A DNA stretch of 64,000 nucleotides from Acidimicrobiia bacterium (GTDB taxonomy: Bacteria; Actinomycetota; Acidimicrobiia; Spongiisociales; Spongiisociaceae): the NCBI GenBank assembly GCA_003229305.1, contig QIDH01000093.1, positions 9,756-73,755 on the forward strand, written 5' to 3'. Made by a program: the position numbers and the translations under genes. The notes below the pieces were generated by a model that was not told the origin of the DNA, ran no database searches, and was given only the letters and a program-made list of their open reading frames with translations. Within the stretch, counting starts at the first letter, position 1. Every line of letters begins with the position of its first letter. Positions 18,134 through 41,532 of this stretch are shown piece after piece.

Positions 18134-19141
18134 CTATCCTCCCTCGTCCAGGAACCGGTAGATCTTCTCGATGTCGGCTTCTGTCAGCGTTGCTTCCCCG
18201 TAGGCCGGCATGTCCCTCGGACCCTCGCGGATGTCATCGATGAACTGAGCCAGAGATCCGATCTCGTCTTCGAGGGTTGGCCCTACGACGGCTCCCTGCC
18301 CCAGAACCCCGTGGCAGGCAGCACAGCCGTATCCAAAGTAAACCTTGCCGCCGTCGAACGCTGGATCGCCGGACTGGGCAGACGGCTCCTCGTCGAGGCC
18401 GAAACCTTGATACGGGTAGGTGGCACCGATATAGGCGATCTGTGTGCGGTCATAAACCTCAGGGTCGGTCAAATCGGTGTTCAATACCGGAACTCTCACG
18501 AAGACGATCACCATTCCGATCGCCGTTATCACCGCGACAATCGCCAGCAGAACACTGATCCAGACCGAGCCATCGTCTGCGCTGAGGACCTCTTCCAACC
18601 GGCCCTCTCTTCCTACTCGGACGAGGTACACCGCGGCGAGAGCAATGAGGGACCAGACCCCGGTGATCAAGAGGATCACCAACGTTCCGTTGACGAACGG
18701 GATCTCGACGCCGCTCTCGGATCGGTACAGTTGCTCTCCTCCGGGTTCCACTGCGATCGTGAACACGTAGGGGGAGACCGGGTTGGTGCCAGGGCCGAGG
18801 TAGGTGACCTGCATTTCGCCGTTGTCGTCCGCCCGCTGCTCGTAGAACATCACTGCGGTTCCTGTTTCGTCGGTGGTTCCCGTTGCGATCTCGACTCTCG
18901 TCGACTCTCCGCCCAGCGATGCTTGGTATGTCAGCGCCACCTCAGCGCCTTCTATAGGAACGCCGTCCTCAGACAACACGGCCTTTACTTCGACATCTTG
19001 GCCGACCAAGACTTTGTCTGGAGCCCCGACGGCGATATCGACAGTGGCTGCGAGGGCTGGAGCAGCCATCACCAGGATCGTCGCCACGGCAAGGATTGAG
19101 ATAGAGACACGGGCACTGAGCAGGCGATGACGATAGGTCAA
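18134..19141 (-). CDS. Membrane-anchored monoheme c-type cytochrome with an Ig-like periplasmic domain
   Basis: C-terminal CAACH haem-binding site within a class-I cytochrome c domain (YFGYGCAACHGV...RDMPAYG), two TM helices and an N-terminal signal peptide. The likely start is the TTG at 19141, in a TTGA overlap with the upstream gene's stop. The longer ORF to 19366 has no ATG near the signal peptide. Confidence 0.75.
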   Translation of the reverse strand: MTYRHRLLSARVSISILAVATILVMAAPALAATVDIAVGAPDKVLVGQDVEVKAVLSEDGVPIEGAEVALTYQASLGGESTRVEIATGTTDETGTAVMFYEQRADDNGEMQVTYLGPGTNPVSPYVFTIAVEPGGEQLYRSESGVEIPFVNGTLVILLITGVWSLIALAAVYLVRVGREGRLEEVLSADDGSVWISVLLAIVAVITAIGMVIVFVRVPVLNTDLTDPEVYDRTQIAYIGATYPYQGFGLDEEPSAQSGDPAFDGGKVYFGYGCAACHGVLGQGAVVGPTLEDEIGSLAQFIDDIREGPRDMPAYGEATLTEADIEKIYRFLDEGG

Positions 19142-20550
19142 GACGCACCTCCTTCCGCGGGTCGGCCAGAGTCGGGGGAGACCTCCGTCGATAGTCGGGG
19201 TCCGGCGATCGCTGCTTCGTGCATGAGTGTCTCCTCGGCCTGGGTGAGCGCCATGGCAGCGTCGTGTTCTTCGGTCATCTCCCATACAGCGAACATCGGG
19301 AAGATTTTGACAGTCACCGTCAGGAGGAGACAGAACATGGCCACACCTGAAGCCGCGATGGACCACTCCACGAAGTTCGGGCTATAACTGGCCGGCTCAT
19401 AGGGCATCAGAGGAACACGGAGTCCTGTGACGACGAGGAAGTAGCGCTCGATGAACATTGCGAGATTCACGAGAACCGCCGCGACCACGATGCCTCCAAT
19501 GGTGCGGGTCTTCGGGATCAGGACGATCGCGACCGGTACGACGAGCCCGAAAATGATGTAGAAGCTGAACATGCCGGAGAACTCTTCCAAGAACAGCTGA
19601 CGGAAGGCGAACTCCGATCCCTCCTCGAACTTGAACCCTGCGGTGAGGTACTCGCTGACATTGATATAGATCATGAAGAGGGCTAGCGACGCGAGCATGT
19701 AGCCGAGGTACTTGAACTGACGTTCGGTGATGTACTCCTCCCAGTGGTAGGTCTTTCTGAGGACCGCCATGATGATGATGAGCGTGGCCAATCCGGAGAA
19801 GACCGCCCCTGCAACGAACAGGATTCCGAAGATCGCGGTGTTCCATCCAACGCGAAGCGTCATGCCGAAGATCCACGAGACGACGGAGTGAACCGACACG
19901 GCGATCGGGATGATGATCAACGTCATGATCGTGATGGCCTTACCGAGGAGCTTGAACTGAGTCGGTGAGCCCTTCCAATCCAGGGCGAGTGTCCGGTAGA
20001 TGAAACTGCGTACGGCTCCGACCTTGCCGGCGAGTCGATCCCTGTACAGCGCCAAATCAGGGATCATCGGTGCGTACAGATAGATGAGGCTCGCTGTCAA
20101 GTACGTCGTGATCGCCATGACGTCCCACATGATCGGGGATTGCCAACGCCCATGGATGTACACGTTGAAGATCCGTTCGGGGCGGCCCATGTCGACGATG
20201 ATGAACCCCGCCCCGATCATCAGAGCGAACGCGGTGATGAACTCGGCGACTCGGGTGATCGAGGCTCGCCACTGTGCATTCGCCGCACGCAACATCGCCG
20301 ATATTACGGTGCCGGCCATGCTGACGCCGGTGAAGAAGATGAACATCGAAATGTACAGACCCCACGAGATGCGGTCCCTCATGTCGGTGACGTAGAGGCC
20401 GTCCTGCCACTGCTTCCAGTACTGGAATGCGCCGTTGCCAGTGATCAGGATCAGGAATCCCAGCCACAACCAGTACTTGTACGTGGTGACCCGTGTCGGC
20501 CTCGTTGTCTTGCTGATGAGCCGTTCACGCCAGTTGGTCACCGTGTCCAT
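19138..20550 (-). CDS. NrfD/PsrC-family polytopic membrane subunit (quinone/quinol-interacting)
   Basis: About 10 predicted TM helices, typical NrfD/PsrC/ActC size, directly downstream of an NrfC-type FeS protein. Start trimmed to the internal ATG at 20550; the ORF extends to 20586. Confidence 0.8.
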   Translation of the reverse strand: MDTVTNWRERLISKTTRPTRVTTYKYWLWLGFLILITGNGAFQYWKQWQDGLYVTDMRDRISWGLYISMFIFFTGVSMAGTVISAMLRAANAQWRASITRVAEFITAFALMIGAGFIIVDMGRPERIFNVYIHGRWQSPIMWDVMAITTYLTASLIYLYAPMIPDLALYRDRLAGKVGAVRSFIYRTLALDWKGSPTQFKLLGKAITIMTLIIIPIAVSVHSVVSWIFGMTLRVGWNTAIFGILFVAGAVFSGLATLIIIMAVLRKTYHWEEYITERQFKYLGYMLASLALFMIYINVSEYLTAGFKFEEGSEFAFRQLFLEEFSGMFSFYIIFGLVVPVAIVLIPKTRTIGGIVVAAVLVNLAMFIERYFLVVTGLRVPLMPYEPASYSPNFVEWSIAASGVAMFCLLLTVTVKIFPMFAVWEMTEEHDAAMALTQAEETLMHEAAIAGPRLSTEVSPDSGRPAEGGAS

Positions 20551-21551
20551 GACACTGCGCCCTCGGCACGTTCGATCCACGGCCAATCTGTGGGCATTCG
20601 ACCCTCTACTCCAGGGTCACGTCCGACGTCCTCGCCGTGGCCTGGCAGGTAGTGCACCCTCGGCTGGGTGCCAAGGTGTTCCTTCAACCGGTAGCCATTG
20701 TTCTCCGAGATCAATCGGGAAGCCTTGACGATGGTGCGACCGTTCGTCGCGATGTCCTCCTCGAGGTCTCCATACCAAATGGCGTCGTTTGGGCAGGCTT
20801 GTACACAGAAGGGAAGCGTCCCGTCCCTAACCATCTCAGGGCAGAAATCACACTTCATGACTGTTCCCCTGGTTGCGGGGACCTGCTGTTCCACCTGGTA
20901 GTCAGCGAGGGCTGCCTCCGGGGGTATTGGCGGGTCGCCCCAGTTGAAGAACCTACGGTCGTAAGGGCAGGCGGCCATGCAGATACGACATCCGATGCAC
21001 CGTTCTTGATCGATCAGAACGACTCCCTCCGGGGTGGAGAACGTCGCCCCGACGGGGCACACCTTCACACAAGGAGGATTCTCGCACTGCTGGCATGGAG
21101 TAGGGATAAATTGGGTGCCGCCGCCGCCAAAGTCCGCCTCATAGACCTCGATCCATTCCATGGGCTGTGGAGCGAAATGCCCCTCGATGCAGGCCGTCGT
21201 GCACTGGGGAGGGGTGCCCTGACTCTGGCAGCCGTCACACTTGGCGAGGTCGATGATCATCGACCATTGGCGGATTCGACCCGACTTGGTGGTTGCCGGC
21301 GCGGTGACGCTGATCTGATCGGTGGCGTCCGGTCCCCTGACGACATCGGCCACCAAACCGTCCATGACTCCACCGGGGGCCATCAGCGGAACTGCACCAA
21401 TGGCACCCATGGTGATGTATTTGAGTGCCTCTCTTCGGCTCACAGGCCTGATGGAGACAGGCGTCTCGGCCTGTCCTCTTGCCCGTGGTTTGGCTTGGTG
21501 GCGTCTCTTCGTCACATCTGCTCCCGATGTCGTGGAGGCTGGTCCTGGCAT
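20538..21551 (-). CDS. NrfC/PsrB/DmsB-type 4Fe-4S ferredoxin subunit with Tat signal
   Basis: Twin-arginine motif (SRREALKYITMGAIGA). Cys clusters: CDGCQSQG...C, CQQCENPPCVKVCP, CIGCRICMAACP and CDFCPEM...CVQACP. Confidence 0.8.
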   Translation of the reverse strand: MPGPASTTSGADVTKRRHQAKPRARGQAETPVSIRPVSRREALKYITMGAIGAVPLMAPGGVMDGLVADVVRGPDATDQISVTAPATTKSGRIRQWSMIIDLAKCDGCQSQGTPPQCTTACIEGHFAPQPMEWIEVYEADFGGGGTQFIPTPCQQCENPPCVKVCPVGATFSTPEGVVLIDQERCIGCRICMAACPYDRRFFNWGDPPIPPEAALADYQVEQQVPATRGTVMKCDFCPEMVRDGTLPFCVQACPNDAIWYGDLEEDIATNGRTIVKASRLISENNGYRLKEHLGTQPRVHYLPGHGEDVGRDPGVEGRMPTDWPWIERAEGAVSWTR

Positions 21552-21619
21552 GGACTCCCCTTCTGTCCGTGGAAGTCAGCGCACGTTTCCACGGACAGGT
21601 GAGGGTTGTGGCACGAGCG

Positions 21620-22576
21620 TTAGCGGAGGTTGACCTGGATCCATCCTTGGTTGGATGACTGGACGTGGGTCGAGTCGTCCCAGCCGTCTGGTCCAAAGTC
21701 CGAGTCCCAATATGCGAGCGCGAGGAGTGTCGACTCGCCGGCCGCGAACCGAGCGTCTTGCTCATCACCGGTCTGGAGCGGTCGCGACATCTCGAAGTAC
21801 CAGAGCCCGGGTGAGTCCGCGGTCGGGTTCGAGTGGTTCCACACGCCAAGCAGGTTGTTCTCGGCTCCTGCTCCGTTGTCGTCTCCACGAGTCAGCGCGT
21901 CTGATGCCCATTCGTCGTCGAAGTTACATACGGAGTCGTTGCCCAGGTCCTTGCCCTCACCTGGCGGGTTGACTGCGCCGCCGGACTCGATGCCGGCTGC
22001 GCATTCGAGTTCCCAATGCCAAACGTCTACGAGCCCGGTCGAGTTGGCGCCCTGCTCATCGTCTGCGCCCATATGTGGGCCGCCCGAGTCGACGGGGAAG
22101 AGCAGCGCGGCGGCCGAAGAAAGCTTGGCATCTTCGGCATTCCAGTTGTAGTCGTCGTCGACGGTGAACAGCGCGTAAATGTTCTCATCGTCGTGCGCCA
22201 TCTTGATGGTGACGTCGCGGTTCTCAATCGGCTTGTCTGCGTCGGCGACGATCGGCTCGAGCGTCATTGCCAGCCCGACAACGTCGGCCCAGTCCGATGG
22301 GTCACCATCGACCGTGATTGCCGCAACCGGAGCATCCAACGAACGCTCCGCTGGCTCCTCGACGGGGGCCGCCGGCGCCTCGGTTGAGGGTGCCACCTCG
22401 GTGGTTTGTGGTATCTCTGTGGTGGATGGAGCCTCGGTCGTCGTGGTTCCGAGGGATGTTGATGTCGTTGCTGGGCCCCGGGTAGTGGTGGCGGCGCCTG
22501 TGTCCGAACTGCCGCACGCCGCGGCTACCAGGGCCAGGACGGATACGACTATGAGTATCTTGCCCTTGATCCGCAT
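21620..22576 (-). CDS. Lipoprotein with Thr/Pro-rich linker and a DOMON / EB_dh (ethylbenzene dehydrogenase gamma-like) / CBM9-clan beta-sandwich domain
   Basis: Signal and lipobox (LVAAAC), then a low-complexity TTTRGPATTSTSLGTTTTEAPSTTE linker, then blocks typical of the clan (ITVDGDPSDWADV; IKMAHDDENIYALFTV; VDVWHWE; LLGVWNHS; LALAYWDSD). The fold assignment is from motif recollection only. Confidence 0.5.
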   Translation of the reverse strand: MRIKGKILIVVSVLALVAAACGSSDTGAATTTRGPATTSTSLGTTTTEAPSTTEIPQTTEVAPSTEAPAAPVEEPAERSLDAPVAAITVDGDPSDWADVVGLAMTLEPIVADADKPIENRDVTIKMAHDDENIYALFTVDDDYNWNAEDAKLSSAAALLFPVDSGGPHMGADDEQGANSTGLVDVWHWELECAAGIESGGAVNPPGEGKDLGNDSVCNFDDEWASDALTRGDDNGAGAENNLLGVWNHSNPTADSPGLWYFEMSRPLQTGDEQDARFAAGESTLLALAYWDSDFGPDGWDDSTHVQSSNQGWIQVNLR

Positions 22577-22790
22577 ATGACTGATCTCCTACGTCGTTCG
22601 CCACTGTTTTGGTGGCGGGGTGTTCCTCGTAAACAAGCTACGGTCGAAGATGGGTGCCCGGTCAGGAGCGAAAGGACTGATCGGCGTATCGTTGGATAGC
22701 TCCTCTCGATCCTTTTGGTGGCCGAAAAGGGGACCTTCTGCCAGGAACTATTGGAGAGGCGCGGCTCAACCGCGTCGCCGAAAACGCCCT

Positions 22791-23423
22791 CTAGGAAATG
22801 AGGCCGAGGCGCATCGCCACGGCCACCGCCTCAGAGCGGCGCTGCACGCCGAGAGATGCGTAGATCGCTCTCAGCTTGGCCTTGGTGGTGGCGCTACTCA
22901 TCGACAAGGAAGTTGCGATCTCCGAGTTGTCTGCCCCGTCGGCGAGGAGTTGGAGAATCTTCATCTGCTCGACGGTCATCTCGCCGACCGGTCCCTGAGC
23001 ATCTGTCCCGATCATGCGGGCGAAAAGGGGACCGCTCACCTCCGGCTGAAAATAGGTTTTTCCCTCCGCGACCTTGCGGATGGCGCGAACCAGTTCATCC
23101 TGCCCCACGTTCTTGAGGAGGTAGCCGGATGCTCCCAGTTCGATGGATCTGCTCACGTACACCGGGTCGCCGTACATGCTCAGCATCACAACGGCTACAT
23201 CCAGGCCCAGCCTACCGATCTGCTCGAGTACGTCGAAACCCGACATCCGGGGCATACGGACGTCGAGGAGGACCACATCGACCTCTGTCTCGCTGAGAAT
23301 ATCGATCAGCTCTGCGCCGTCTGAGGCATGTGCCACTATCTCGATCTGGTCCGTTCCCTCGACAAGCAGGCTCAGCCCTTCTCGAATGATCCGATGATCG
23401 TCTGCGATCGCCACCCTGATCAT
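22791..23423 (-). CDS. Response regulator, NarL/LuxR family
   Basis: Receiver domain (IRVAIADDHRIIREGL...DVVLLDVRMP) and a LuxR-type HTH (LSMSSATTKAKLRAIYASLGV). Confidence 0.85.
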   Translation of the reverse strand: MIRVAIADDHRIIREGLSLLVEGTDQIEIVAHASDGAELIDILSETEVDVVLLDVRMPRMSGFDVLEQIGRLGLDVAVVMLSMYGDPVYVSRSIELGASGYLLKNVGQDELVRAIRKVAEGKTYFQPEVSGPLFARMIGTDAQGPVGEMTVEQMKILQLLADGADNSEIATSLSMSSATTKAKLRAIYASLGVQRRSEAVAVAMRLGLIS

Positions 23424-24757
23424 CGTTGTCCTGCGGGCCGAAGCGGCACCCAGGCGGCGAAGCGGGTGCCTGCACCTTTGGCGTCGGTGACCTCGATGCC
23501 GCCACCGATCGCTTCCAGCCGGTCCCTGGTCGTGGTCAGGCCGAGTCCGGGTGGGGCGGTGATGCCTGCTCCGTCGTCTATCACCTCGATCATGGTCGAG
23601 TCTCTTCCTTCTACCAATCGCATGGTGGCGTGGTCGGCGTGCGCGTGCCGATCGACGTTCGTCAATGCCTCTTTGGCAGCTCGAAAAAGCGTCGCCCGAT
23701 GGGGCAGTGGGAGTTCGGTCTCGACATCAGCTTCGAAGTCGATGTCGAGTCCGGTTTCGGCCTCGACGACCTCCGCCAGCTCGGCCAAGGCGGATTCCAG
23801 GTCGATCTCAACACCGGGCTCGTCGCGCAATCCTTTGAGCTCGGATCGCAGGATCGAATCCATCTCCCTCGCGAGCGTTTCGAGGCTCTCCAGTTCGTCG
23901 TCGACGGCTGATCCCTTCCCGACCGTCCTGCGACTTGCTTGAAGCCCGAACAGGATTCGATAGAGAGGTTGCCCAATGTCGTCGTGGAGGGCTCCGATGA
24001 TTCTCATCCGTTCGTGCTCCTGGATACCGAGGAGTTGGCTTATCAACCGCTCAGACCGTGATTTTGATCTGCGCTCGGCTCGAACGTTCGTGATGGTTGC
24101 AGCGGTGAGTGCCGTCATGAGGACAATTGAGCCCAATCCGAGAGCGGTCCACACTGCTGATCTTATCCGGGTCACGGCATTGTCCACGTGGCTCGCCAAC
24201 TCGTACACTTCGAAGACGATCTCGACGCCCTGGGTACCGCTGTCTACCGGTATGTAATATTCGCGCAGGTCGCCGAAACCACGTTCATATTCGTTCTCCG
24301 GTCGGCTGAGATCTGGCTTCTCGTACGTGACCTGACCACTGAAGGCGGCAGGGAGACTGTCAGGTGCCTCGTATCTGTTGCCGATGAGGCGCGCCTCATC
24401 GGAGAACACGATCGTGCCGGTGGCGTCCCAGATCTTTACGCGCACGATTTCGTGTCCGAGCAACGACCGTTCAACCTGGGTTTGGAGCAGCGCCAACGCG
24501 TCGTCAGTGAACCCCTCCCCAGAGTCGTGGGCAATGGCGATCTCGTCGATGATGCTCTTGATGGAGGTGGCCTCTGCCTCGAGCAGGTCTTGTTCGACGA
24601 TGTCGGGAATGGTCAGTGCCAGGACGAGGGCGACGGTGAGAGCAACGGCTCCGCCGACAACGGCAGTGGCGCCGACTGGTCCGAGATTGAATCCACCACG
24701 TTTCCCCACCCCGAGCGGGGCTCTCGGCTTCTGCTCCGGCTCTGTTGCAGGGCTCAT
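23420..24757 (-). CDS. Sensor histidine kinase, NarX/HisKA_3 type
   Basis: Coupled to the regulator by an ATGA overlap at 23420. HisKA_3 H-box (IGALHDDIGQPLY), HATPase_c (DDGAGI...GLGL), one TM helix and a periplasmic-like N-domain. Start trimmed to Met (MSPATEPEQ). Confidence 0.75.
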   Translation of the reverse strand: MSPATEPEQKPRAPLGVGKRGGFNLGPVGATAVVGGAVALTVALVLALTIPDIVEQDLLEAEATSIKSIIDEIAIAHDSGEGFTDDALALLQTQVERSLLGHEIVRVKIWDATGTIVFSDEARLIGNRYEAPDSLPAAFSGQVTYEKPDLSRPENEYERGFGDLREYYIPVDSGTQGVEIVFEVYELASHVDNAVTRIRSAVWTALGLGSIVLMTALTAATITNVRAERRSKSRSERLISQLLGIQEHERMRIIGALHDDIGQPLYRILFGLQASRRTVGKGSAVDDELESLETLAREMDSILRSELKGLRDEPGVEIDLESALAELAEVVEAETGLDIDFEADVETELPLPHRATLFRAAKEALTNVDRHAHADHATMRLVEGRDSTMIEVIDDGAGITAPPGLGLTTTRDRLEAIGGGIEVTDAKGAGTRFAAWVPLRPAGQR

Positions 24758-24873
24758 ATACCAGAGCTTCGCACCATCTACGGAACCTACCAACCGGCCT
24801 GGGCCGCCGGTGGCACTTTGGTACGGGCCTTTGGTCCCTGTCGGGTCTGACGCAGAGCGAGAAGGATGTTGGC

Positions 24874-25191
24874 ATGGCTTTCGAAGCATTGGACGTCGGA
24901 TCCGACCATAAGGAACGGCGCCAGATCGATGTCGTACTGGTTACGGCTTCCCGCTGCCATTTGTGTGACGACGCCCGGACGTTGCTGGACGAACTCAGCG
25001 GTCGGTATCCCCTTGCGATCCGCGAGGTGGATCTGGAGAGCGATGAGGGAAGGTCCATCGCCAACCGGTTGCGGGTGCCGTTTCCGCCCATGTTGTTGCT
25101 GAACGGCACCTATTTCGCACATGGACGGCTCTCGCGCGGCAAGCTTGCCAAGGCGCTCGCCGAGGGGGTTGGGCTGGAGGAGGCGCTATGA
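24874..25191 (+). CDS. Glutaredoxin-like thiol-disulfide protein (CxxC = CHLC, DUF836-like)
   Basis: About 105 aa with the thioredoxin-fold motif VVLVTASRCHLCDDARTLL. Internal ATG chosen. Confidence 0.65.
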   Translation: MAFEALDVGSDHKERRQIDVVLVTASRCHLCDDARTLLDELSGRYPLAIREVDLESDEGRSIANRLRVPFPPMLLLNGTYFAHGRLSRGKLAKALAEGVGLEEAL

Positions 25192-25224
25192 CCCGGATCG
25201 GTCCCAGGCGGACGGCGGGCTGAA

Positions 25225-26172
25225 ATGGAAGGTCTCTTCCTGGGTGGATCTCTGATCGCAGCATTCCTCGCCGGGGCAGTCGCGCTGTTCGCGCCATGCT
25301 GCGTGACGGTGTTGTTTCCTGCCTACCTTTCGGCAGCGGTTCGCAACAGCCGATGGCGGCTGCTGCCGCTGACTCTGGTTTTTGCTACGGGGATCGCCGT
25401 GGTGCTCGTCCCGGTTACCCTCGGCCTCGGGATCCTCACCCGTACTCTGCTCCGATACCATGGTGCGTTCTATGTTGCCGGTGGGGTTCTCATGCTGATC
25501 CTCGCCTGGCTGGCTTTGTCCGGCAGAGGATGGGCCTTGCCGATCATGCGGGGATCGCCAGACGTGGCGCGCACCGACTCCGGCGGGGTTTTCGTCCTAG
25601 GCGTCTTCTCGGGCGCCGCATCCGCCTGCTGTGCCCCGGTTCTCGCCGGCGTCCTGACTCTGTCTGCGGTGGCCCCAAGTCTCATCCAGGGCGTCGGGAT
25701 CGGGCTGGCGTACGTATTCGGGATGGTCTTTCCCCTGGTTGTGCTCGCCCTGGCCTGGGACCGATTCGGGTCGGGCGCCCGAGACCGACTCCGAGGTCGG
25801 GAGCGGCAACTCCGCCTGGCAGGCCGGGAGCTCAAGGTCACGACGCTCGACCTCGTCGGCGGGGCGATGTTCACTCTGATGGGCATTGCCATGATCGCCA
25901 TCGGGGTAACAGGAGCGACGCTCGTCCCCACGGCTCAGGCCAGTATCGGGATCTGGCTCCAGGATCGCCTGACGCCGTTTGTGCAGTGGCTCGAGCCGGT
26001 ACCTGATCTCGTGATCGGCCTGGTCCTGGTTGCCCTGGGTGTCGCGGCGGTGGCCATTTCGGGCCGACGTCGGAATTCAACTGATATCGAACCCTCACAA
26101 GATGGGAATTATCATGAAGAACAGTCACAAACCGCCGAGACGGTCGCCCGGGCAGGCAAAGACCGCGGGTAG
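25225..26172 (+). CDS. Cytochrome c-type biogenesis protein CcdA / DsbD-family transmembrane electron transporter
   Basis: Polytopic membrane protein with conserved Cys in TM1 (FAPCC) and TM4 (SACCAPVLAG), the DsbD/CcdA pattern. Confidence 0.75.
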   Translation: MEGLFLGGSLIAAFLAGAVALFAPCCVTVLFPAYLSAAVRNSRWRLLPLTLVFATGIAVVLVPVTLGLGILTRTLLRYHGAFYVAGGVLMLILAWLALSGRGWALPIMRGSPDVARTDSGGVFVLGVFSGAASACCAPVLAGVLTLSAVAPSLIQGVGIGLAYVFGMVFPLVVLALAWDRFGSGARDRLRGRERQLRLAGRELKVTTLDLVGGAMFTLMGIAMIAIGVTGATLVPTAQASIGIWLQDRLTPFVQWLEPVPDLVIGLVLVALGVAAVAISGRRRNSTDIEPSQDGNYHEEQSQTAETVARAGKDRG

Positions 26173-26725
26173 TAGGAAGCGCAAGGCGTCGTGGTGGAGC
26201 TGGGCGGCCGTTGTCCTGCCGCTCGCCGCGGTGGTCGCACTAGTCGTGCTCGGAGGAGATGGCGACTCGATAGCCGACTCAGATGTGGGGTCCCCGGCCC
26301 CGGACTTCGACCTCCCGGCCACCGATGGCGGCCGCCAAACACTCGACAGCGTTCTTGCCGAGGGTGATGCCCTGCTCTACTTCTCGATGGGTCCTGGATG
26401 TGATGGTTGTTTCGCCCAGATTCCCGAGGTCGAAGACGCCCTTGCCGAAAGGGGGATCAACCTCGTTCCTGTCATGGTCCTGCCCGCGGCCCAGGTCGCC
26501 GCCGAGGCGGAGCGTTTCGGGATCACCACCCCGATCCTCATCGACGCCGACCGTTCCGTGTCGGAGGCGTATGGGATGATCGGCGTGTACGGACACCAGG
26601 ACCGTCCGAGTCACAGCTTCGCTCTTGTCGACCAGCAGGCTCAGATCAAGTGGGTTCACCACTACGCAGAGATGTTCGTGCCCACTGATCAGCTACTCAG
26701 TGACCTTCGCCTCATGGAGGCGTAG
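26114..26725 (+). CDS. TlpA/ResA-like membrane-anchored thiol:disulfide oxidoreductase (redoxin)
   Basis: N-terminal TM anchor followed by a thioredoxin fold with CxxC (GPGCDGC). Overlaps the 3' end of ccdA. Confidence 0.75.
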   Translation: MKNSHKPPRRSPGQAKTAGSRKRKASWWSWAAVVLPLAAVVALVVLGGDGDSIADSDVGSPAPDFDLPATDGGRQTLDSVLAEGDALLYFSMGPGCDGCFAQIPEVEDALAERGINLVPVMVLPAAQVAAEAERFGITTPILIDADRSVSEAYGMIGVYGHQDRPSHSFALVDQQAQIKWVHHYAEMFVPTDQLLSDLRLMEA

Positions 26726-30035: not shown

Positions 30036-31031
30036 TCAACCGTTGAACGGCTTGTTTTTTGGCCCTTTGCGAACGCAGGCGTTCCAAACGGTCTCGTAAT
30101 GGTCGACGTCATAAGCATCCACATGCGGTAGGACCATGGTCTCCCAGGCTCGGCGCAAGGGGTCTTCAGATGCGCTGAACATGCGGAGCCCGGCCGGTAC
30201 GCGATCGAGCACAGTCCTCAGACTCATCGGAGTTTCCACCCGTGAACCCGATTCGGAAGCCAAGAAGGATTCGTTCACCTCGGTGGCGAGTCTGCTCATG
30301 GCATCGACATACTCGTGCTCCAGGTGAGGGTAACGGGTGGTCAGCATCGCCGTTACCTGGTCCCCATCGGGGAAATCCTTCTCCCAGATGACCCATCTGT
30401 CGGCAAAGGCCTTGTTGAGGTTCTGAGTGCCCGCGTAGTCCCGTAGATCGGTCGGATTCATGGTGCCAAAGAGCCGGATGTCATCCCGGAGGGGGACGTG
30501 TTCGCCGGTGGGCAGATCGATGGCCTGATATCTGTCCATCAGACCGTGCAAAGCGAAGAGGGTCTCCGCTCCTGCCGCGTTGAGTTCAGACAGGTTCACC
30601 AGCGCAGGCCCCCGGAGGGCCCTTGTGATGTCGCCGTCTTCCCATCGGCTCTCCGTGCCTCCCATTCCGTCCCCGTAAAGTTTGACCGAACCGAGCAAGG
30701 TGATGTCTCTGACTTCGCCGGTCAGGGGGATCCGGTAGTACGGAAGTCGCATCAGAGCGGCGAATTGTTCTATGTCGTGATCTTTGCCGGTCCCCATGTG
30801 GCCCCTCACCGCCAGGTGTAGAACGACCTTGTCCGAGGGGTTGTCTCTTCTGACCTTTTCGACCTGGGCGAAGCGGTACAACATCCCCATGTCCAAGTAG
30901 TAGGGGTCTGGGCTTGGGATCTTTTTCTTGCGCGTTTTGTGGTCAGCGATTCCGGTGCCGACCTTGAACGTCGCGAGCGTGATCGGCTGTCCCTCGCCTG
31001 ACGGATCTTCGAATGTCACCTTGTCAGGCAT
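30036..31031 (-). CDS. AAA_5-family ATPase, CobS-like (cobaltochelatase subunit CobS homolog)
   Basis: Conserved CobS blocks (PDPYYL; VRGHMGTGKDHDIEQFAA as Walker A; LFGTMNP as sensor-1; GTQNLNKAFADRWVIW). The Walker A is atypical: GTGKD rather than GTGKS/T. Confidence 0.8.
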   Translation of the reverse strand: MPDKVTFEDPSGEGQPITLATFKVGTGIADHKTRKKKIPSPDPYYLDMGMLYRFAQVEKVRRDNPSDKVVLHLAVRGHMGTGKDHDIEQFAALMRLPYYRIPLTGEVRDITLLGSVKLYGDGMGGTESRWEDGDITRALRGPALVNLSELNAAGAETLFALHGLMDRYQAIDLPTGEHVPLRDDIRLFGTMNPTDLRDYAGTQNLNKAFADRWVIWEKDFPDGDQVTAMLTTRYPHLEHEYVDAMSRLATEVNESFLASESGSRVETPMSLRTVLDRVPAGLRMFSASEDPLRRAWETMVLPHVDAYDVDHYETVWNACVRKGPKNKPFNG

Positions 31032-33162
31032 TGCTGTGCTCCTTGATAGATGGTGTCCATGCTTGATTTTGGCGATGGCGGCCTGCTCTCATCCACCACG
31101 TGTCGTGGCCGAACATCGCCAGGCCGCGTCTGAGCGACATGCGCACGCCGTCGACCATCGCTTCGGTTAGTTCCTCTGGTCTGGCCACGACCCTGTTCCT
31201 TCCATAGGTTGCCTGGACGGTGTCGTCTCCGATACCGATCCCCAGGACGGTTGTGCCGGAGTGTTCGACCGCTTCCACGGCCCCGGCCAGCGATTCGACC
31301 GAGCCTCGCGTCATCCCGTCTGCCAGGACCACCAACACCCTGACCTCGGCCCTCGAGGCCGCCAGACGCTGCGCCGCATATGTGATGTTGAACTCGTCGA
31401 CGTTGGCTGCTTTTTCGAACATCGAAACCGGAGGGGTTTGGCGCGCTTGGCGTCTGGCGGCCTTGGTTGCCTCGGCCGGGCTCGCCGCAGCCCAAAACAA
31501 GCCGGCCATGACGTCTTGGCAGCGCCGCCAGGGTTCGTCGAATGTCGAAAGGAGGTAGTGGTTGACCGTGCTTGTCAACCGATCTGCCGCCGAACCCTGA
31601 GACTGGCGAAGCTCGGCGGTTGCCGAGTTCTTTCGTTTCCCGTATGACCATTCACTGTCATCGATCTGGGCGGCGAACGAGCGGTTGAACAAGGACACCT
31701 CGAATGACACCTGAAGCTGGTCACACATGGCCGCGAGGGTCCAGGCGCCGAGAATCGCCGCGGCGAGACCCCATGGCTGTCGATCGGTTGGGCCGGCCAG
31801 GCGCCTCGGTTGAAGCATTGACGCAGACGCGTCGACCAGGACGCTGACCGCGTATGAGCGTCTGGTCGAAGAAGTTCGACGCTCGAACATGCGCTCATAG
31901 AGCCCTGCCCCCAACAAGAGGGCGGCGTGGGGTGAAAGGTCACCTGCGTCGTAGCCGGATCGTAGGCCGCGCCTCTGATTGGCAATGAAAAGCGGGTGGA
32001 GCTCCCCAGCGATATGGCGGCTGTCGACCTTCCACTTCTTTGATGCTTTTTGGATAGCGGATCGTCCCTCGGGAGCGAACGTCCTGAAGGATATGGGGAT
32101 TCTCGCGACGAGAAGTTTGCCTCCCTGGCCAGATGGCAGGAAGATCGTCGGCGATTGGCTGACCCGCAGGATCTGGTCGGTGCCTTCGTTGGCCCCGACC
32201 TCCGCCTCGGCCTTCCGGCCTGTTTCGGCCGCCCTGGCCTCCGACGCCTTGCGGGTCTCGTCGTAGCTCTCCGCATCCTGCACGATCGGGCTGTGCAGGC
32301 GAATTCGGTCTACGCCTTCTGCAATCGCCTCTTGCTCGGCCTCCTCACGCAGCTTCTTGTTTGGTGCGGACTCCGGCGCGCTGGCCGAGGCGATGAGGTT
32401 GTGCATTCTGGCCACCACCAGGAGTTGCAGAGCCAGGCCGGCGACGTCCCACGGGTTGCTCGCCGTCGCCGCGGCCTCAATGAACGGCGTTGCATCGCCA
32501 AGGGCTGCCGCTGCCCTCGAATCCAGACGCTTTTCGAGTGTGTCGCGCTCGATGTAGTCGCCGGTGAGTAGAAACACTGCGAGGGCGAACTGCGACAACG
32601 CACCCGTGTTGGCGGCAGCTTCAGGGATCGCGGCTCGGTAGAGGTCAGCCAAAACCGAACGTGCTCCTGGATAAACGGACAAACCTTGCAATTCTTGACG
32701 GGCGTCTTCCAACGCAAAGAAGAGGGCCTCGGCTGGAGGGCCACCCGCCCGGTCCAGCGCCTCCAACAGCATCAGCTCCCGGTCCTCAGGCCCTTCCGAG
32801 TCCTTCGGTAACCACTCGGCCGGCAGGGGTCTGCGTTCCTCCAGATCGGTTGACACAAGATGAACGACCTCGTGAAGAGCTGAAGCGAGGGCGGTCTCTT
32901 CAGGAGTCACCGGCGCTCGTCGACCGTAGGCAGATTGAAACAGGCCAGGGTCGATGACGATTTCGTCATCGCTTGATTTGCTACCCGAGCCGAGGATGAC
33001 CCGCAAATTTTCTCGACCGGTCAACGATCTCGCGAAGCGTGCCACGGCTCCCGCCACCCGCTGATAGCGTCCGACGACCGACTCGATCGCGCGCTCTTCG
33101 GGGGCGAGAATCTCACTGAGAAACGAGCCGTTGCCTTGTGCCATAACCGTCCATTGTTGCAT
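31024..33162 (-). CDS. CobT-like protein with C-terminal von Willebrand factor A (vWA) domain
   Basis: Overlaps the cobS-like gene by 8 nt. The C-terminal vWA domain has a MIDAS (metal-ion-dependent adhesion site) DASAS motif (VSVLVDASASM...VLADGMT). The N-terminal region has an HExxH motif (ALHEVVHLV). Confidence 0.7.
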   Translation of the reverse strand: MQQWTVMAQGNGSFLSEILAPEERAIESVVGRYQRVAGAVARFARSLTGRENLRVILGSGSKSSDDEIVIDPGLFQSAYGRRAPVTPEETALASALHEVVHLVSTDLEERRPLPAEWLPKDSEGPEDRELMLLEALDRAGGPPAEALFFALEDARQELQGLSVYPGARSVLADLYRAAIPEAAANTGALSQFALAVFLLTGDYIERDTLEKRLDSRAAAALGDATPFIEAAATASNPWDVAGLALQLLVVARMHNLIASASAPESAPNKKLREEAEQEAIAEGVDRIRLHSPIVQDAESYDETRKASEARAAETGRKAEAEVGANEGTDQILRVSQSPTIFLPSGQGGKLLVARIPISFRTFAPEGRSAIQKASKKWKVDSRHIAGELHPLFIANQRRGLRSGYDAGDLSPHAALLLGAGLYERMFERRTSSTRRSYAVSVLVDASASMLQPRRLAGPTDRQPWGLAAAILGAWTLAAMCDQLQVSFEVSLFNRSFAAQIDDSEWSYGKRKNSATAELRQSQGSAADRLTSTVNHYLLSTFDEPWRRCQDVMAGLFWAAASPAEATKAARRQARQTPPVSMFEKAANVDEFNITYAAQRLAASRAEVRVLVVLADGMTRGSVESLAGAVEAVEHSGTTVLGIGIGDDTVQATYGRNRVVARPEELTEAMVDGVRMSLRRGLAMFGHDTWWMRAGRHRQNQAWTPSIKEHSNA

Positions 33163-39294: not shown

Positions 39295-41532
39295 CTAGCG
39301 GCTCTGAGATTCGCGGAGACCGGCCAGGACCCGATCAGGGGTCAGAGGGAACTCGCTGAACCATACGCCGGTGGCGTCGTGAAGGGCGGCGACGATTGCC
39401 GGCGCATACGGGATCAGCGGCATTTCGGCCATCCCTCGTGCTCCCCAAGGGCCGAGGGGGTCTGCGATTTCGACGATGACGGTCTCGATTCGATCAGGCA
39501 CATCTTTGGTTCCGGGCACCAGATAGCCGGAGAAGGTCGGGTTGGTGATTCGGCCTTCCACCACGGACAGCCGTTCGGACAAGACGTAGCCGTGGGCTTG
39601 GACTATCGCCCCTTCAACCTGGCCGCGGACGAGGATTGGATTGATCGCCCTTCCGACGTCAATGGCGCACCAGACAGTGCCGACCCGCACATGGCCGGTT
39701 CCAACGTCGACTGCCACGTCGACGATCTCGGCGACATATCCGAACGCGAACACTGGCGAGCCGACGCCGGTTTCCGGATCGAGAGCTTCGGTCGGCGGTG
39801 GCACATATCGGAAGTCACCGACTGCAGGCCGTTCCCCCTCGTTCCAAGCCTTGGTCGCCACTTCGGCGGCACCTTGGATGGCATTGCCGGACATGAAGGT
39901 CAATCGTGAGGCAGACGCAGACCCTGAGTCGCCAGAAGTGGCCGTGTCCGAGAATGTGCCGGTCACTTTGTCAAGCGGCAGCCCGACCGCCTCAGCCGTC
40001 ATCTGGAGAAAGGCAGTGTGGGCGCCTTGTCCGACGTCCGCGCCGGCGTGGGCGAGATGTGCCGACTCGATGTCTTCGTCGCCGTCCAGGGTGACGGTCG
40101 CTTCGCAGCGTTCAGGAAAGCCCATTGCGAAGCCGACGTTCTTGAGGGCACAGGCGACCCCCCGACCAGAGCGGGTGGATGGCTGGTGGGCGCCGAGCGT
40201 GCGGATGGCGCTCACGGACGGCGGGTTGGCGATCGCCTCGCCCCATCCGGCCGCGCCAGAGCATGCATCGATCACCGCGTCGATGCTCACGCCATCAGGC
40301 ATCACCGTCTGGGTGATGAAGTCATCGCCGTCGTGGAGGATGTTGGCCATCCGGATCTCGACGGGGTCCATGCCGAGCGCATGGGCCATCTTGTTCATCT
40401 GTGTCTCGGAGACGAAAGAGCCCTGGGGGCCTCCGAAACCTCTGAAGGCGCCGCCAGGCACTGAGTGTGAATACACAGCCCTGGAATCGACTCTCGCGTT
40501 CGGAATGTTGTACGGCCCGGTCAGGGAGAGGTGCAGGTTGGCGAGCACTTTGTTCGAGGTGTAGTTGTATGCGCCGGAGTCCAATACGGCGTCTGCCTCG
40601 ACTGCAACGATCTTTCCATCTGAGGTGGCGCCCCACCTGGCTGTGACCTGTGCTCGGTGCCGCTTGTGGTGGCCGACGATGCTCTCTTCGCGGTTCCACA
40701 CCGTTCGAATCGGTCGGCTGATTCCCCGGTCCCGCATTTTCAGCGCAGCAGCGGCCATGACGATTTGCAGGCTCATGTCCTCTCTGCCGCCAAAGGCGCC
40801 GCCGATCGCAGGGTAGATCACCCTCACGACTTCGGGCGGGAGGTCGAGGGCGTGGGCGATCTGGCCCCGGTCCTCGTGAGCCCATTGTCCGGCAACCTCG
40901 ACTGTGACCCTGCCATGGTCGTCGATGTAGGAGACGGCGGCTTCCGGCTGCAGGTATGCGTGTTCCTGGTGGGGGAGGGTGTAGGTGCCTTCGATGATGT
41001 GGTCCGCCATGGCCCAGCCGACTTCGATGTCCCCTTTTCGGATTTTCAGCTGGTAGTAGGTGTTGGTTTCGAGCCCGTTCTCGGGGTGGACCAACGCTCC
41101 GTTTGTTTCTGTTTCTGAGAAGTCCGGAGCCATCTGGAGCTGCTCCCAGGTGATGTCCAATGCCTTCGCTCCTGCCAGGGCGGCCTCCGTTGTTTCAGCG
41201 ATCACGACTGCGACCTGATCCGCTTCCCATCTCGACACGTCGGAAGGCACCTTCGACCTGCCAGTTCCGTCGACTCCAACCAACACAGGTTGGTCGAACA
41301 TGGTGAGCCCGTATTCGTTCATCGGGATGTCCGCCGCGGTGACAACATCGACGACGCCGGCTATTGCCACTGCCCGGTCCGTGCTCATGGACAACATGAG
41401 GGCGTGTGGTTGGTCCGAGAAGACCACCTTGGCCGTGAGTGCGTCTTTGGCTTCCAGATCTCCTGGATACAGCGCTGCCCCAGTCACCTTGGCATGACTG
41501 TCACGCCTGACTGCGTCGGCTCCGATGGTCAT
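39295..41532 (-). CDS. Xanthine dehydrogenase family molybdopterin-binding large subunit
   Basis: N-terminal a/b-hammerhead start (SHAKVTGAALYPGD) and Mo-cofactor binding blocks (GGAFGGRED; AFRGFGGPQG). The start ATG at 41532 is in an ATGA overlap with the upstream FAD/FeS gene. Confidence 0.85.
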   Translation of the reverse strand: MTIGADAVRRDSHAKVTGAALYPGDLEAKDALTAKVVFSDQPHALMLSMSTDRAVAIAGVVDVVTAADIPMNEYGLTMFDQPVLVGVDGTGRSKVPSDVSRWEADQVAVVIAETTEAALAGAKALDITWEQLQMAPDFSETETNGALVHPENGLETNTYYQLKIRKGDIEVGWAMADHIIEGTYTLPHQEHAYLQPEAAVSYIDDHGRVTVEVAGQWAHEDRGQIAHALDLPPEVVRVIYPAIGGAFGGREDMSLQIVMAAAALKMRDRGISRPIRTVWNREESIVGHHKRHRAQVTARWGATSDGKIVAVEADAVLDSGAYNYTSNKVLANLHLSLTGPYNIPNARVDSRAVYSHSVPGGAFRGFGGPQGSFVSETQMNKMAHALGMDPVEIRMANILHDGDDFITQTVMPDGVSIDAVIDACSGAAGWGEAIANPPSVSAIRTLGAHQPSTRSGRGVACALKNVGFAMGFPERCEATVTLDGDEDIESAHLAHAGADVGQGAHTAFLQMTAEAVGLPLDKVTGTFSDTATSGDSGSASASRLTFMSGNAIQGAAEVATKAWNEGERPAVGDFRYVPPPTEALDPETGVGSPVFAFGYVAEIVDVAVDVGTGHVRVGTVWCAIDVGRAINPILVRGQVEGAIVQAHGYVLSERLSVVEGRITNPTFSGYLVPGTKDVPDRIETVIVEIADPLGPWGARGMAEMPLIPYAPAIVAALHDATGVWFSEFPLTPDRVLAGLRESQSR

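Follow-up and report, generated by a model that had tools for sequence, protein, structure and literature searches.

A four-gene operon of Acidimicrobiia and Chloroflexota encoding a minimal NrfD-type core and a lipid-tethered, probably haem-b-binding EB_dh-fold protein

What can an NrfD-type membrane subunit and its ferredoxin do when they are encoded with an ethylbenzene dehydrogenase-like lipoprotein instead of a molybdopterin catalytic subunit? The question is raised by a four-gene operon in a 64,000-nucleotide stretch of contig QIDH01000093.1 from an Acidimicrobiia bacterium (the window; G+C ~61%), which specifies an EB_dh-fold lipoprotein, an iron–sulfur (FeS) ferredoxin, an NrfD-family membrane protein and a membrane-anchored monohaem cytochrome c (Table 1). 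Database labels of such genes, namely ‘polysulfide reductase NrfD’, ‘molybdoenzyme membrane anchor’ and ‘ethylbenzene dehydrogenase-related protein’, are uninformative or misleading. We consider it probable that the four products form a membrane-bound menaquinol:acceptor oxidoreductase, a reduced relative of alternative complex III (ACIII) in a monoderm member of Acidimicrobiia. The operon unites a quinol core with a lipid-tethered, probably haem-b-binding protein, a combination that has not been described before.

Gene set and quinone-interacting core

The four open reading frames (ORFs) are co-directional on the minus strand, with exactly the limits given by an earlier interpretation of the DNA alone (the sequence-only reading), and profile searches with Pfam and NCBIfam bear out its domain assignments for all four proteins. 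Its claim of translational coupling stands for the FeS/NrfD and NrfD/cytochrome c pairs, which overlap by 13 nt and by 4 nt (TTGA), respectively, with a purine-rich Shine-Dalgarno-like run preceding both overlapping starts; the EB_dh and FeS genes do not overlap, and a 68-nt gap with a conserved hairpin lies between them (see below). The length of the NrfD protein is counted from an ATG that is also the start in the JGI gene call.

The membrane subunit belongs to the NrfD family (PF03916, E = 1.4e-36) and, among all PDB sequences at E ≤ 0.01, matches only the ActC chains of ACIII (8k9e_C, 6f0k_C, 6btm_C and 6lod_C; E = 5.8e-45 to 4.3e-39 over ~375–400 residues), with PsrC not matched at this threshold. 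In NCBIfam, DsrP is the top model (132 bits against a cut-off of 350) and QrcD the next, all of them scoring under their cut-offs. We mapped the quinol site onto the residues described for Rhodothermus marinus ActC (PMC8076601): Ser164 and Asp169 of ActC correspond to S138 and D143 of the NrfD protein, both retained and invariant in 20 homologues, while His139 corresponds to D120, a position at which DsrP, QrcD and PsrC also have Asp, and Asp253 to I227. We predict that this protein is a subunit of the ActC/DsrP class with 10 transmembrane (TM) helices that provides the quinol/quinone site.

The ferredoxin (Fer4_11) has 16 cysteines in four CxxC...CxxxC(P) motifs, which are enough for four cubane clusters. 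Its top NCBIfam model is DsrO (168 bits against a cut-off of 200), followed by NrfC, QrcC, TtrB and ArrB, again all under their cut-offs, and its matches among PDB sequences are PsrB (E = 8e-28), ArrB and ActB, of whose ~1030-residue chains it aligns only to the C-terminal ~240 residues (~775–1020). It bears its own twin-arginine translocation (Tat) motif (SRREALK), and a twin-arginine motif is present in 28 of 32 homologous FeS ORFs; a molybdenum (Mo) partner is therefore not needed for its export. An own Tat signal is typical of the ferredoxins of relatives that lack Mo, such as DsrO, NrfC and ActB. By these profile and PDB sequence matches, the core consists of an ActC/DsrP-class quinone-interacting subunit and a four-cluster ferredoxin. 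The label ‘ACIII-like’ thus holds for the membrane subunit in so far as ActC provides its only PDB matches, but as a resemblance and not as membership, since the FeS/NrfD pair scores best against DsrO/DsrP.

The sequence-only reading had also noted the absence of a molybdopterin catalytic subunit and of ActA, which we confirm both within the window and beside related operons. No subunit of the Mo-bis(pyranopterin guanine dinucleotide) type (Mo-bisPGD) was found among the ORFs of at least 450 residues in the window, none recurs beside more than 50 related operons, and no large ORF of any kind was found to recur beside ~30 of them. The window has no pentahaem ActA, the CAACH motif of the cytochrome subunit being the sole CxxCH among the four operon proteins; the operon has no ActB1-like molybdopterin domain, no dsrMKJ-like genes lie at the locus, and the window encodes neither NrfA nor NrfB. 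A second, ActF-like NrfD is likewise missing: PF03916 is represented by one gene only, whether in the operon, among the JGI gene calls or at the related loci. The only Mo enzymes encoded in the window are two sets of the xanthine dehydrogenase/carbon monoxide dehydrogenase (XDH/CODH) family, which are of cytoplasmic types and lie 17–25 kb from the operon with no evident operon link.

The EB_dh lipoprotein as a putative haem b carrier and exchangeable head

The lipoprotein matches PF09459 with E = 1.7e-13 (51.6 bits against a gathering cut-off of 33.3) and lies outside the gamma-subunit subfamily TIGR03477, for which it scores 24 bits against a cut-off of 169.85. Its signal peptide ends in ...LVAAAC with the lipobox Cys21, and a 56-residue tether (residues 22–77), mostly of Thr, Ala, Pro, Glu and Ser, leads to an acidic beta-sandwich domain (residues 78–318; isoelectric point (pI) 4.05, 47 D+E against 10 K+R). 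A profile built from 58 EB_dh sequences returned one relevant match in the PDB, namely NXR-C of the Kuenenia nitrite oxidoreductase (7b04_C, E = 2.3e-7). The AlphaFold2 (AF2) model, with a mean predicted local distance difference test score (pLDDT) of 77.6 and a core above 90, retrieves the same chain with Foldseek (E = 6e-12), then EbdC (2ivf_C, E = 2e-9, TM-score 0.76 on the target), and next the CBM9 modules and the putative carbohydrate-binding protein 4jpq (E = 2e-6 to 1e-4); the CBM9 profile PF06452 has no match in the window protein.

In NXR-C, as in ethylbenzene dehydrogenase (EBDH), haem b is ligated by Met155 and Lys305 (PMC8387239). In our alignment Met155 sits in an R-M-G motif, to which P-H-M-G corresponds in the EB_dh family. 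The Met/Lys pair that the sequence-only reading had proposed to look for is therefore present in its first half, as M169 of the M-G motif; for the second half there is no conserved Lys in the family alignment, and the predicted ligand is instead a His, H304. Both M169-G170 (80/80 loci) and the residues H304 and R265 (78/78 each) are retained throughout; among divergent representatives of 50%-identity clusters the counts are 93/98 for M169, 94/95 for H304 and 107/107 for R265, and the Met/His pair occurs in 63 of the 64 sequences that span both ligand positions. H304 follows a conserved AYWD strand that aligns with the MAVWN strand of NXR-C, and is 14 residues away from the C-terminus, a distance that is 13 residues for the Lys ligand of EbdC and 17 for that of NXR-C. 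Because the HMMER alignments to NXR-C end at residue 299, six short of Lys305, the equivalence of H304 to the Lys ligand rests on this spacing and on its invariance. Met/His ligation is known from other cytochromes b of the DOMON superfamily. From these conserved residues we predict that the EB_dh protein probably holds a b-type haem between Met169 and His304. In the closest relatives two EB_dh domains stand in tandem (~490–640 residues; L005:181-1977, L006:7719-9479 and L010:6819-8753, where L numbers denote related loci, as well as P0001, P0006–P0008 and P0019), and each keeps its MG and GW...H motifs, implying two haem sites on one tether.

The family is small. Clustering at 50% identity in a library of 1.84 billion representatives gives 416 clusters, of which 69 match at E ≤ 1e-30, and 471 relatives were found at E ≤ 1e-3 among those scored. 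A scan anchored on EB_dh, with one genome per species, yielded 77 loci, all from metagenome-assembled genomes (MAGs), which come mostly from Acidimicrobiia and otherwise from Chloroflexota (Limnocylindria, Dehalococcoidia and Anaerolineae), a Bipolaricaulia bin and one archaeal bin. Genes for the FeS protein, NrfD and a protein with an immunoglobulin-like (Ig) domain and TM helices adjoin EB_dh in 27 of these loci, and three more end at a contig edge after the FeS gene. The order is either EB_dh-FeS-NrfD-cytochrome c, as in the window, or FeS-NrfD-Ig-(cytochrome c)-EB_dh. Some 30 species-level genomes, from Acidimicrobiia and Chloroflexota, thus share the four-gene set, which is not a chance juxtaposition; the reservation of the sequence-only reading that the genes might not be co-conserved is not borne out.

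When the neighborhoods are instead anchored on NrfD, by single examination of homologues at 55–76% identity and by a metagenome scan (best 80 of 271 relatives), the EB_dh protein emerges as one of several heads on a constant core. In the 22 metagenome loci with enough flanking DNA, 14 operons have EB_dh (seven upstream and seven downstream), four a cupredoxin lipoprotein and four an extra multi-cytochrome c gene; none is headless and none of these loci shows a recurrent molybdopterin gene. In the sister operons with cupredoxin or extra cytochrome c heads, NrfD is 55–62% identical. The cupredoxin head is itself a lipoprotein with a Pro/Ala-rich tether, followed by two tandem cupredoxin domains that each have the H...C...H...M signature of type-1 copper (L084:4747-5781, identical in L128 and 73–76% identical in L122, L123, L134 and L153), in an operon whose order is otherwise homologous: histidine kinase (HK), response regulator (RR), head, FeS, NrfD, Ig and cytochrome c. 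In L084 the operon is followed by ResB, CcsA and thioredoxin genes of the system II type of cytochrome c maturation. Since a blue copper protein or c-type cytochromes fill its slot, there is a strong circumstantial case that the EB_dh protein is an electron carrier. By analogy with auracyanin in ACIII, we therefore regard it as an interchangeable electron-carrier head rather than the ‘extra’ subunit of the sequence-only reading.

The reciprocal exchange is also seen. In 14 of the 77 loci the HK-RR-EB_dh genes are followed by a different gene set (e.g., L016:5392-10555; also L014, L017, L025, L026, L029, L035, L043, L046, L057 and L058). In addition to a 600–690-residue GltD-like NAD(P)-binding flavo-FeS protein (Fer4_20 + Pyr_redox_2 + 2 Fer4), it encodes cytochrome b in split form (PF00033 + PF00032), a Rieske protein and a dihaem cytochrome c; an HmuY-like protein is often encoded as well. 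In four or five Chloroflexota loci EB_dh directly adjoins the Rieske/cytochrome b genes, and the MAG BS2bin.34 carries both contexts (L007 and L016). The EB_dh sequences of the two contexts interleave in a neighbor-joining tree computed without support values. Given this interleaving and co-occurrence, HK-RR-EB_dh appears to be a cassette served by two unrelated quinol-oxidising modules. A Rieske/cytochrome b complex associated with an NAD(P)-linked flavoprotein is reminiscent of the bc complexes of anammox bacteria, for which electron bifurcation has been proposed.

Proteins of an HmuY-like family are encoded beside both operon types (L008:12363-13073, L010:5954-6754 and L016:9848-10555). The L016 member matches HmuY (PF14064, a haem-binding lipoprotein family), and those of L008 and L010 were grouped with it by BLAST clustering only. 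Such proteins could help to deliver haem to the Sec-exported EB_dh protein; beside the window operon no member was seen.

The cytochrome subunit provides a further connection. It has an N-terminal hydrophobic signal/anchor helix, an Ig-like sandwich, two TM helices and a class-I cytochrome domain (PF13442, E = 3.9e-10), which the AF2 model resolves as a beta-sandwich at 34–130, TM helices at 152–179 and 190–216 and a C-terminal cytochrome domain; the Foldseek matches of the sandwich are Ig V-type domains. With its CAACH motif (C273, C276, H277) and distal Met M311 (MPAY), it has the CxxCH and Met ligand of a class-I c-type cytochrome, and C273, C276, H277 and M311-P312 are invariant among 40 homologues. 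The haem domain is part of a module, together with a TM helix and a conserved ‘PE.YDRT..AY’ segment, that takes four forms: joined to the Ig-TM protein, which is the arrangement in the window; joined to the EB_dh N-terminus, where it replaces the lipobox (L004, L048, L053–L055 and L071; P0087, P0100 and P0115); free-standing (L065, L073, L078 and L079); or absent, as in L003:5130-8906 (Candidatus Limnocylindrales, GCA_035717785.1), in which translation of the FeS, NrfD, Ig-TM and EB_dh genes reveals no c-type haem motif in any. This occurrence of one module as fused, free or absent in otherwise identical operons is domain-fusion evidence of the classical kind that EB_dh and cytochrome c work together. 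In the L003 operon, which lacks cytochrome c, EB_dh is the one candidate to accept electrons from the FeS chain.

Electron flow, competing readings and relation to known complexes

We propose that menaquinol would be oxidised at an outer-face site of the ActC-like NrfD and that electrons would cross the Tat-exported ferredoxin by way of its four [4Fe-4S] clusters, on to haem c of the Ig-like, two-TM cytochrome and from there to the b-type haem predicted between Met169 and His304 of the EB_dh protein. On its lipid anchor and ~56-residue flexible linker, the latter would be a tethered mobile carrier whose recipient, not encoded here, might be a terminal oxidase, a reductase or some external acceptor. 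The plan would be that of ACIII, DsrOP and Qrc, cut to a single NrfD and a single ferredoxin. NrfD perhaps also moves protons, ion translocation or proton movement having been proposed for NrfD-type subunits including ActC (PMC8076601). For ACIII, activity as a quinol:auracyanin or quinol:cytochrome c oxidoreductase is established (PMC7439408, PMC10873879), and the role we assign to the tethered carrier is akin to that of auracyanin for ACIII and of membrane-bound cytochrome c for bc complexes. Every extracytoplasmic component is anchored by a lipid or a TM helix, which is consistent with a monoderm cell. In outline this agrees with the quinol-oxidising, cytochrome c-reducing module that the sequence-only reading had favored as the simplest explanation, with the corrections given above.

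Several points weigh against this proposal. The AF2 loop 161–180, which carries M169, has a pLDDT of 54–68; H248 is a second nearly invariant His, with Phe or Tyr in some members; and a Sec-exported lipoprotein must obtain its haem b outside the cell. The L003 operon shows that the haem c step is dispensable, and the order c to b is a guess. The context statistics derive from crude ORF calls, tblastn and just 22 informative metagenome loci, the tree that mixes the two EB_dh contexts has no support values, and all carriers of the operon are known from MAGs. Finally, the direction of flow is not readable from the sequence, and Qrc, a relative of ACIII, is a quinone reductase.

The last point opens the possibility, to which we assign limited weight, that electrons run in reverse: the EB_dh haem, acidic in its surroundings and exposed at the surface, would take them from an external or periplasmic donor (e.g., Fe(II) or a soluble dehydrogenase) and pass them via haem c and the FeS clusters to menaquinone, in a Qrc-like fashion that might be driven by proton-motive force through NrfD, whose coupling to ion translocation has been proposed as noted above. 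The best scores of the FeS/NrfD pair against DsrO/DsrP, with QrcC/QrcD also matched, are compatible with this, as is the strongly acidic EB_dh domain. For FoxC, from an archaeal Fe(II)-oxidation cluster, an EbdC fold with a negative surface has been predicted (PMC10654088). Moreover, a GltD-like flavo-FeS protein, as found in the Rieske/cytochrome b context, would be expected for reverse or bifurcating flow. However, Met/His or Met/Lys haem b centres of this fold are typically of high potential, as in NXR-C (PMC8387239), which would make menaquinone reduction strongly uphill; the type-1 copper proteins and class-I cytochromes c that replace EB_dh are classical acceptors of quinol oxidoreductases; and no donor enzyme is encoded nearby.

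A related proposal, which we deem unlikely, is that the EB_dh lipoprotein represents, in monoderm Acidimicrobiia and Chloroflexota, a new class of cell-surface haem b site that exchanges electrons directly with extracellular metals, in Fe(II) oxidation like that proposed for FoxC or in Fe(III)/Mn(IV) reduction. The head would be plugged into NrfCD or Rieske/cytochrome b modules and switched on by a dedicated two-component sensor. If true, it would define a widespread new route of extracellular electron transfer in uncultured sediment and subsurface bacteria.

Somewhat more doubtful is a version in which EB_dh is the terminal site of extracellular electron transfer, with the haem domain crossing the wall on its long, probably glycosylated tether to pass electrons by an outer-sphere mechanism to Fe(III) or Mn(IV), insoluble or chelated, or to humics, and with NrfCD-cytochrome c acting as the quinol-oxidising feeder. 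The Thr/Pro-rich 56-residue tether with its lipid anchor and the tandem versions with two haem domains in close relatives would suit such a role, as would the occurrence of the family in sediment, aquifer, vent and soil MAGs. There are also parallels in the literature: NrfD-FeS-cytochrome clusters have been proposed as quinol:cytochrome feeders for metal reduction elsewhere (PMC7327174), and an extracellular EBDH-gamma-like protein has been proposed to transfer electrons in a Methanoperedens Borg (PMC9605863). Against this, a single tethered haem is a short wire in comparison with the known multihaem conduits, and the exchange with cupredoxins and small cytochromes c looks more like that of carriers for a membrane oxidase.

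It is very improbable that the EB_dh-fold protein is a non-redox, CBM9-like module that binds wall or glycan, or else a structural subunit, with the chain ending at cytochrome c. CBM9 modules are indeed the next-best structural matches, some homologues have weak matches to PF06452, and Ca2+ might be bound, as it is in CBM9, by the many invariant Asp residues. Yet NXR-C and EbdC outrank CBM9 by several orders of magnitude in both sequence and fold, the Met-Gly motif and the C-terminal His are essentially invariant family-wide, several genomes encode EB_dh as a fusion with cytochrome c, sister operons have copper or haem c proteins in its place, and the L003 operon would be left with no acceptor at all. 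The evidence hence supports a redox protein, and the sequence-only reading's own reservation, that the lipoprotein might fall in a non-redox CBM9 family, is not borne out. Least probable of all, despite the database names (‘polysulfide reductase NrfD’, ‘molybdoenzyme membrane anchor subunit’) and the PsrB and ArrB matches that head the PDB sequence list of the ferredoxin, is that FeS and NrfD are the electron-transfer/anchor subunits of a Psr-, Phs-, Ttr- or Arr-type molybdoenzyme with its catalytic subunit encoded elsewhere in the genome, a normal partnership that the sequence-only reading had also kept in view: the ferredoxin has its own, widely kept twin-arginine signal, NrfD matches ActC and not PsrC, and no Mo-bisPGD gene is found in the window or recurrently beside the related operons.

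Preferring, then, a tethered-carrier menaquinol oxidoreductase, we compared the operon with known systems. With ACIII it shares an NrfD whose closest solved structures are ActC, a Tat-exported ferredoxin similar to the C-terminal portion of ActB, a cytochrome c subunit with one haem, the lack of a catalytic Mo site and a tethered small redox protein as the presumed acceptor, which in sister operons is even a cupredoxin lipoprotein. Unlike ACIII, it has no pentahaem ActA, ActB1 molybdopterin-like domain, ActF or ActD; its ferredoxin keeps all 16 Cys with no evident 3Fe-4S signature; its cytochrome c is a two-TM protein with an Ig-like domain, whereas ActE is a lipoprotein; its acceptor has the EB_dh fold; and its quinol site has Asp for His139 and Ile for Asp253. 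DsrOP and QrcCD provide the best NCBIfam matches of both subunits (DsrO 168 and DsrP 132 bits, with QrcC and QrcD also among them) and share the ferredoxin with its own Tat signal, the 10-TM NrfD with Asp at the quinone position of TM helix 2 and a cytochrome as periplasmic partner, but the scores remain under the equivalog cut-offs, DsrM/K/J and QrcA/B are lacking, and the carrier taxa are not known sulfate reducers.

The beta-gamma pairs of type II dimethyl sulfoxide (DMSO) reductase-family enzymes (EbdBC, NxrBC, SerBC and others) likewise combine a four-cluster ferredoxin with an EB_dh-fold subunit that has the Met ligand motif, and their gamma subunits place a high-potential haem b beside the last FeS cluster. 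The operon differs from them in lacking the alpha (Mo) subunit, in having a ferredoxin of the NrfC/DsrO and not the NarH type, in being membrane-bound through NrfD, and in an EB_dh protein that is a tethered Sec-type lipoprotein, not a Tat hitch-hiker, with a predicted distal His in place of Lys. The cytochrome domain of cellobiose dehydrogenase and plant CYBDOM carry a Met/His-ligated haem b in a beta-sandwich on a flexible linker. These DOMON cytochromes b similarly act as electron shuttles, with a membrane or flavin donor on one side and external acceptors, Fe(III) among them, on the other, but the homology is distant (Foldseek to the fungal cytochrome b domain 6jt6, E = 0.23), and donor modules and kingdom differ.

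FoxC of the Sulfolobales fox cluster, with its predicted EbdC-like fold and proposed part in Fe(II) oxidation (PMC10654088), and the extracellular EBDH-gamma-like protein of the Methanoperedens Borg (PMC9605863) are by description stand-alone EB_dh-fold proteins outside Mo enzymes, but their partners are the haem-copper oxidase-like FoxAB and cohesin domains, respectively, and neither is linked to NrfCD. Sulfolobus CbsA was considered as a further homologue, found no support in the literature and was not used.

Full-text literature searches returned no description of an EB_dh + NrfD operon or complex. The Methanoperedens NrfD-FeS-multihaem clusters, proposed as quinol:cytochrome oxidoreductases (PMC7327174), and the Rhodococcus formate dehydrogenase (FDH)-NrfD complex were considered as prior descriptions, and neither describes an EB_dh/NrfD system. 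The 2021 survey of NrfD complexes lists thirteen named complexes and FqoABC, none of which has an EB_dh subunit (PMC8076601). The view of the sequence-only reading that NrfCD with EB_dh and cytochrome c is not a named complex type is upheld by this survey and by the features that set the operon apart from ACIII, DsrMKJOP and the complex iron–sulfur molybdoenzymes (CISM). As judged from its gene content, the complex would work like the ACIII, Qrc and DsrOP modules and yet falls outside each of them. It would add a new type to the catalogue of NrfD-based respiratory complexes, and suggests that a minimal core of FeS protein, NrfD and cytochrome c can stand without a molybdopterin-like or multihaem subunit. 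The wider pattern is one of plug-and-play, with three tethered carrier chemistries (haem b, blue copper and haem c), two quinol engines (NrfCD and Rieske/cytochrome b) and one type of regulator. Our proposal gives orphan ‘ethylbenzene dehydrogenase-related’ proteins a concrete role and would correct the ‘molybdoenzyme membrane anchor’ label of these NrfD genes. In sediments, aquifers and soils, where Acidimicrobiia and Chloroflexota abound, the way in which these bacteria connect their quinol pool to the outside is relevant to models of their respiration and of possible metal cycling.

Regulatory elements and neighboring genes

Table 1. Features of the window, with positions counted from its first nucleotide.
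Feature	Position	Strand	Size	Remarks
Four-gene operon	18134-22576	minus		
EB_dh-fold lipoprotein	21620-22576	minus	318 aa	PF09459
FeS ferredoxin, NrfC/DsrO-type, Tat-exported	20538-21551	minus	337 aa	Fer4_11
NrfD-family integral membrane subunit, ActC-like, ~10 TM	19138-20550	minus	470 aa	PF03916
Monohaem cytochrome c, Ig-like domain, membrane-anchored	18134-19141	minus	335 aa	TTG start; PF13442
Sensor histidine kinase (HisKA_3 + HATPase_c)	23420-24889	minus		Pfam; upstream of operon
NarL/LuxR-family response regulator (Response_reg + GerE)	22791-23423	minus		Pfam; overlaps kinase stop
Degenerate palindrome copy GGCAGAAGGTCCCC	22729-22742	minus		Between response regulator stop and EB_dh start
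Second upstream box CCAACGAT	22688-22695	minus		~45 nt downstream of palindrome; spotted by eye
Intercistronic hairpin	21563-21598	minus		Between EB_dh stop and FeS ribosome-binding site; core CCGUGG...CCACGG
XDH/CODH-family molybdoenzyme genes (MoCoBD, FAD_binding_5, Fer2_2), two sets	39295-42971, 45371-47944			Only Mo enzymes in window
Thiol-redox trio	24745-26725	plus		Divergent from kinase gene
712-aa ORF	31024-33162	minus	712 aa	
Protein with C-terminal 4Fe-4S motifs	48959-50746		595 aa	Near XDH/CODH-family genes

The operon is probably controlled by the adjacent two-component system of the HisKA_3/NarL type, acting via a conserved palindromic box. The kinase has TM segments predicted at 76–94 and 245–263, which flank an extracytoplasmic domain of ~150 residues; this domain has no match in Pfam or NCBIfam and offers no hint of the signal. 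The best NCBIfam models of the response regulator are MctR, MadR and NarP/NarL, all under cut-off. EB_dh has a homologous HK/RR pair beside it at ~38 related loci, whether the context is NrfCD or Rieske/cytochrome b. Among 26 related loci with HK-RR-EB_dh adjacency, 20 have the imperfect palindrome TAGGGCCGAAAGTCCCTA on the coding strand with at most two mismatches, again in both contexts, its clearest copies being L011:5348-5365, L015:5313-5330 and L016:4153-4170; the window copy, GGCAGAAGGTCCCC, is more degenerate than these. We regard the palindrome as a candidate operator of the adjacent NarL-family regulator. Its half-site AGTCCC presumably resembles the mycobacterial DosR box, which we note as a lead only. 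The second box, CCAACGAT, was also seen by eye in the same upstream regions of other loci (e.g., L011, L012, L013, L014 and L025). Scans for sigma-70 promoters and intrinsic terminators gave nothing exceeding chance.

The hairpin between the EB_dh and FeS genes is notably stable for its composition: the 81-nt region folds with a dG of -31.6 kcal/mol (z = -3.3), and none of 200 shuffled sequences folds as well. It recurs in seven related loci with its CCGUGG/CCACGG core invariant and with compensatory changes in 7 of 17 pairs, the outer pairs covarying; it has no match in Rfam. Such an element could be a transcript stabiliser or an attenuator that sets the stoichiometry of EB_dh to the core.

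Of the other genes in the window, the thiol-redox trio encodes a glutaredoxin-like protein (DUF836), a 315-residue polytopic membrane protein that has a CC motif, matches nothing in Pfam and is possibly CcdA/DsbD-like, and a membrane-anchored ResA/TlpA-like thioredoxin. It may be a source of reductant for cytochrome c maturation, and was not found conserved beside the operon elsewhere (e.g., in L002). The 712-residue ORF, with no Pfam match at E ≤ 1e-5, lies directly upstream of a 331-residue gene product that is annotated by JGI as AAA_5 (MoxR-like ATPase).

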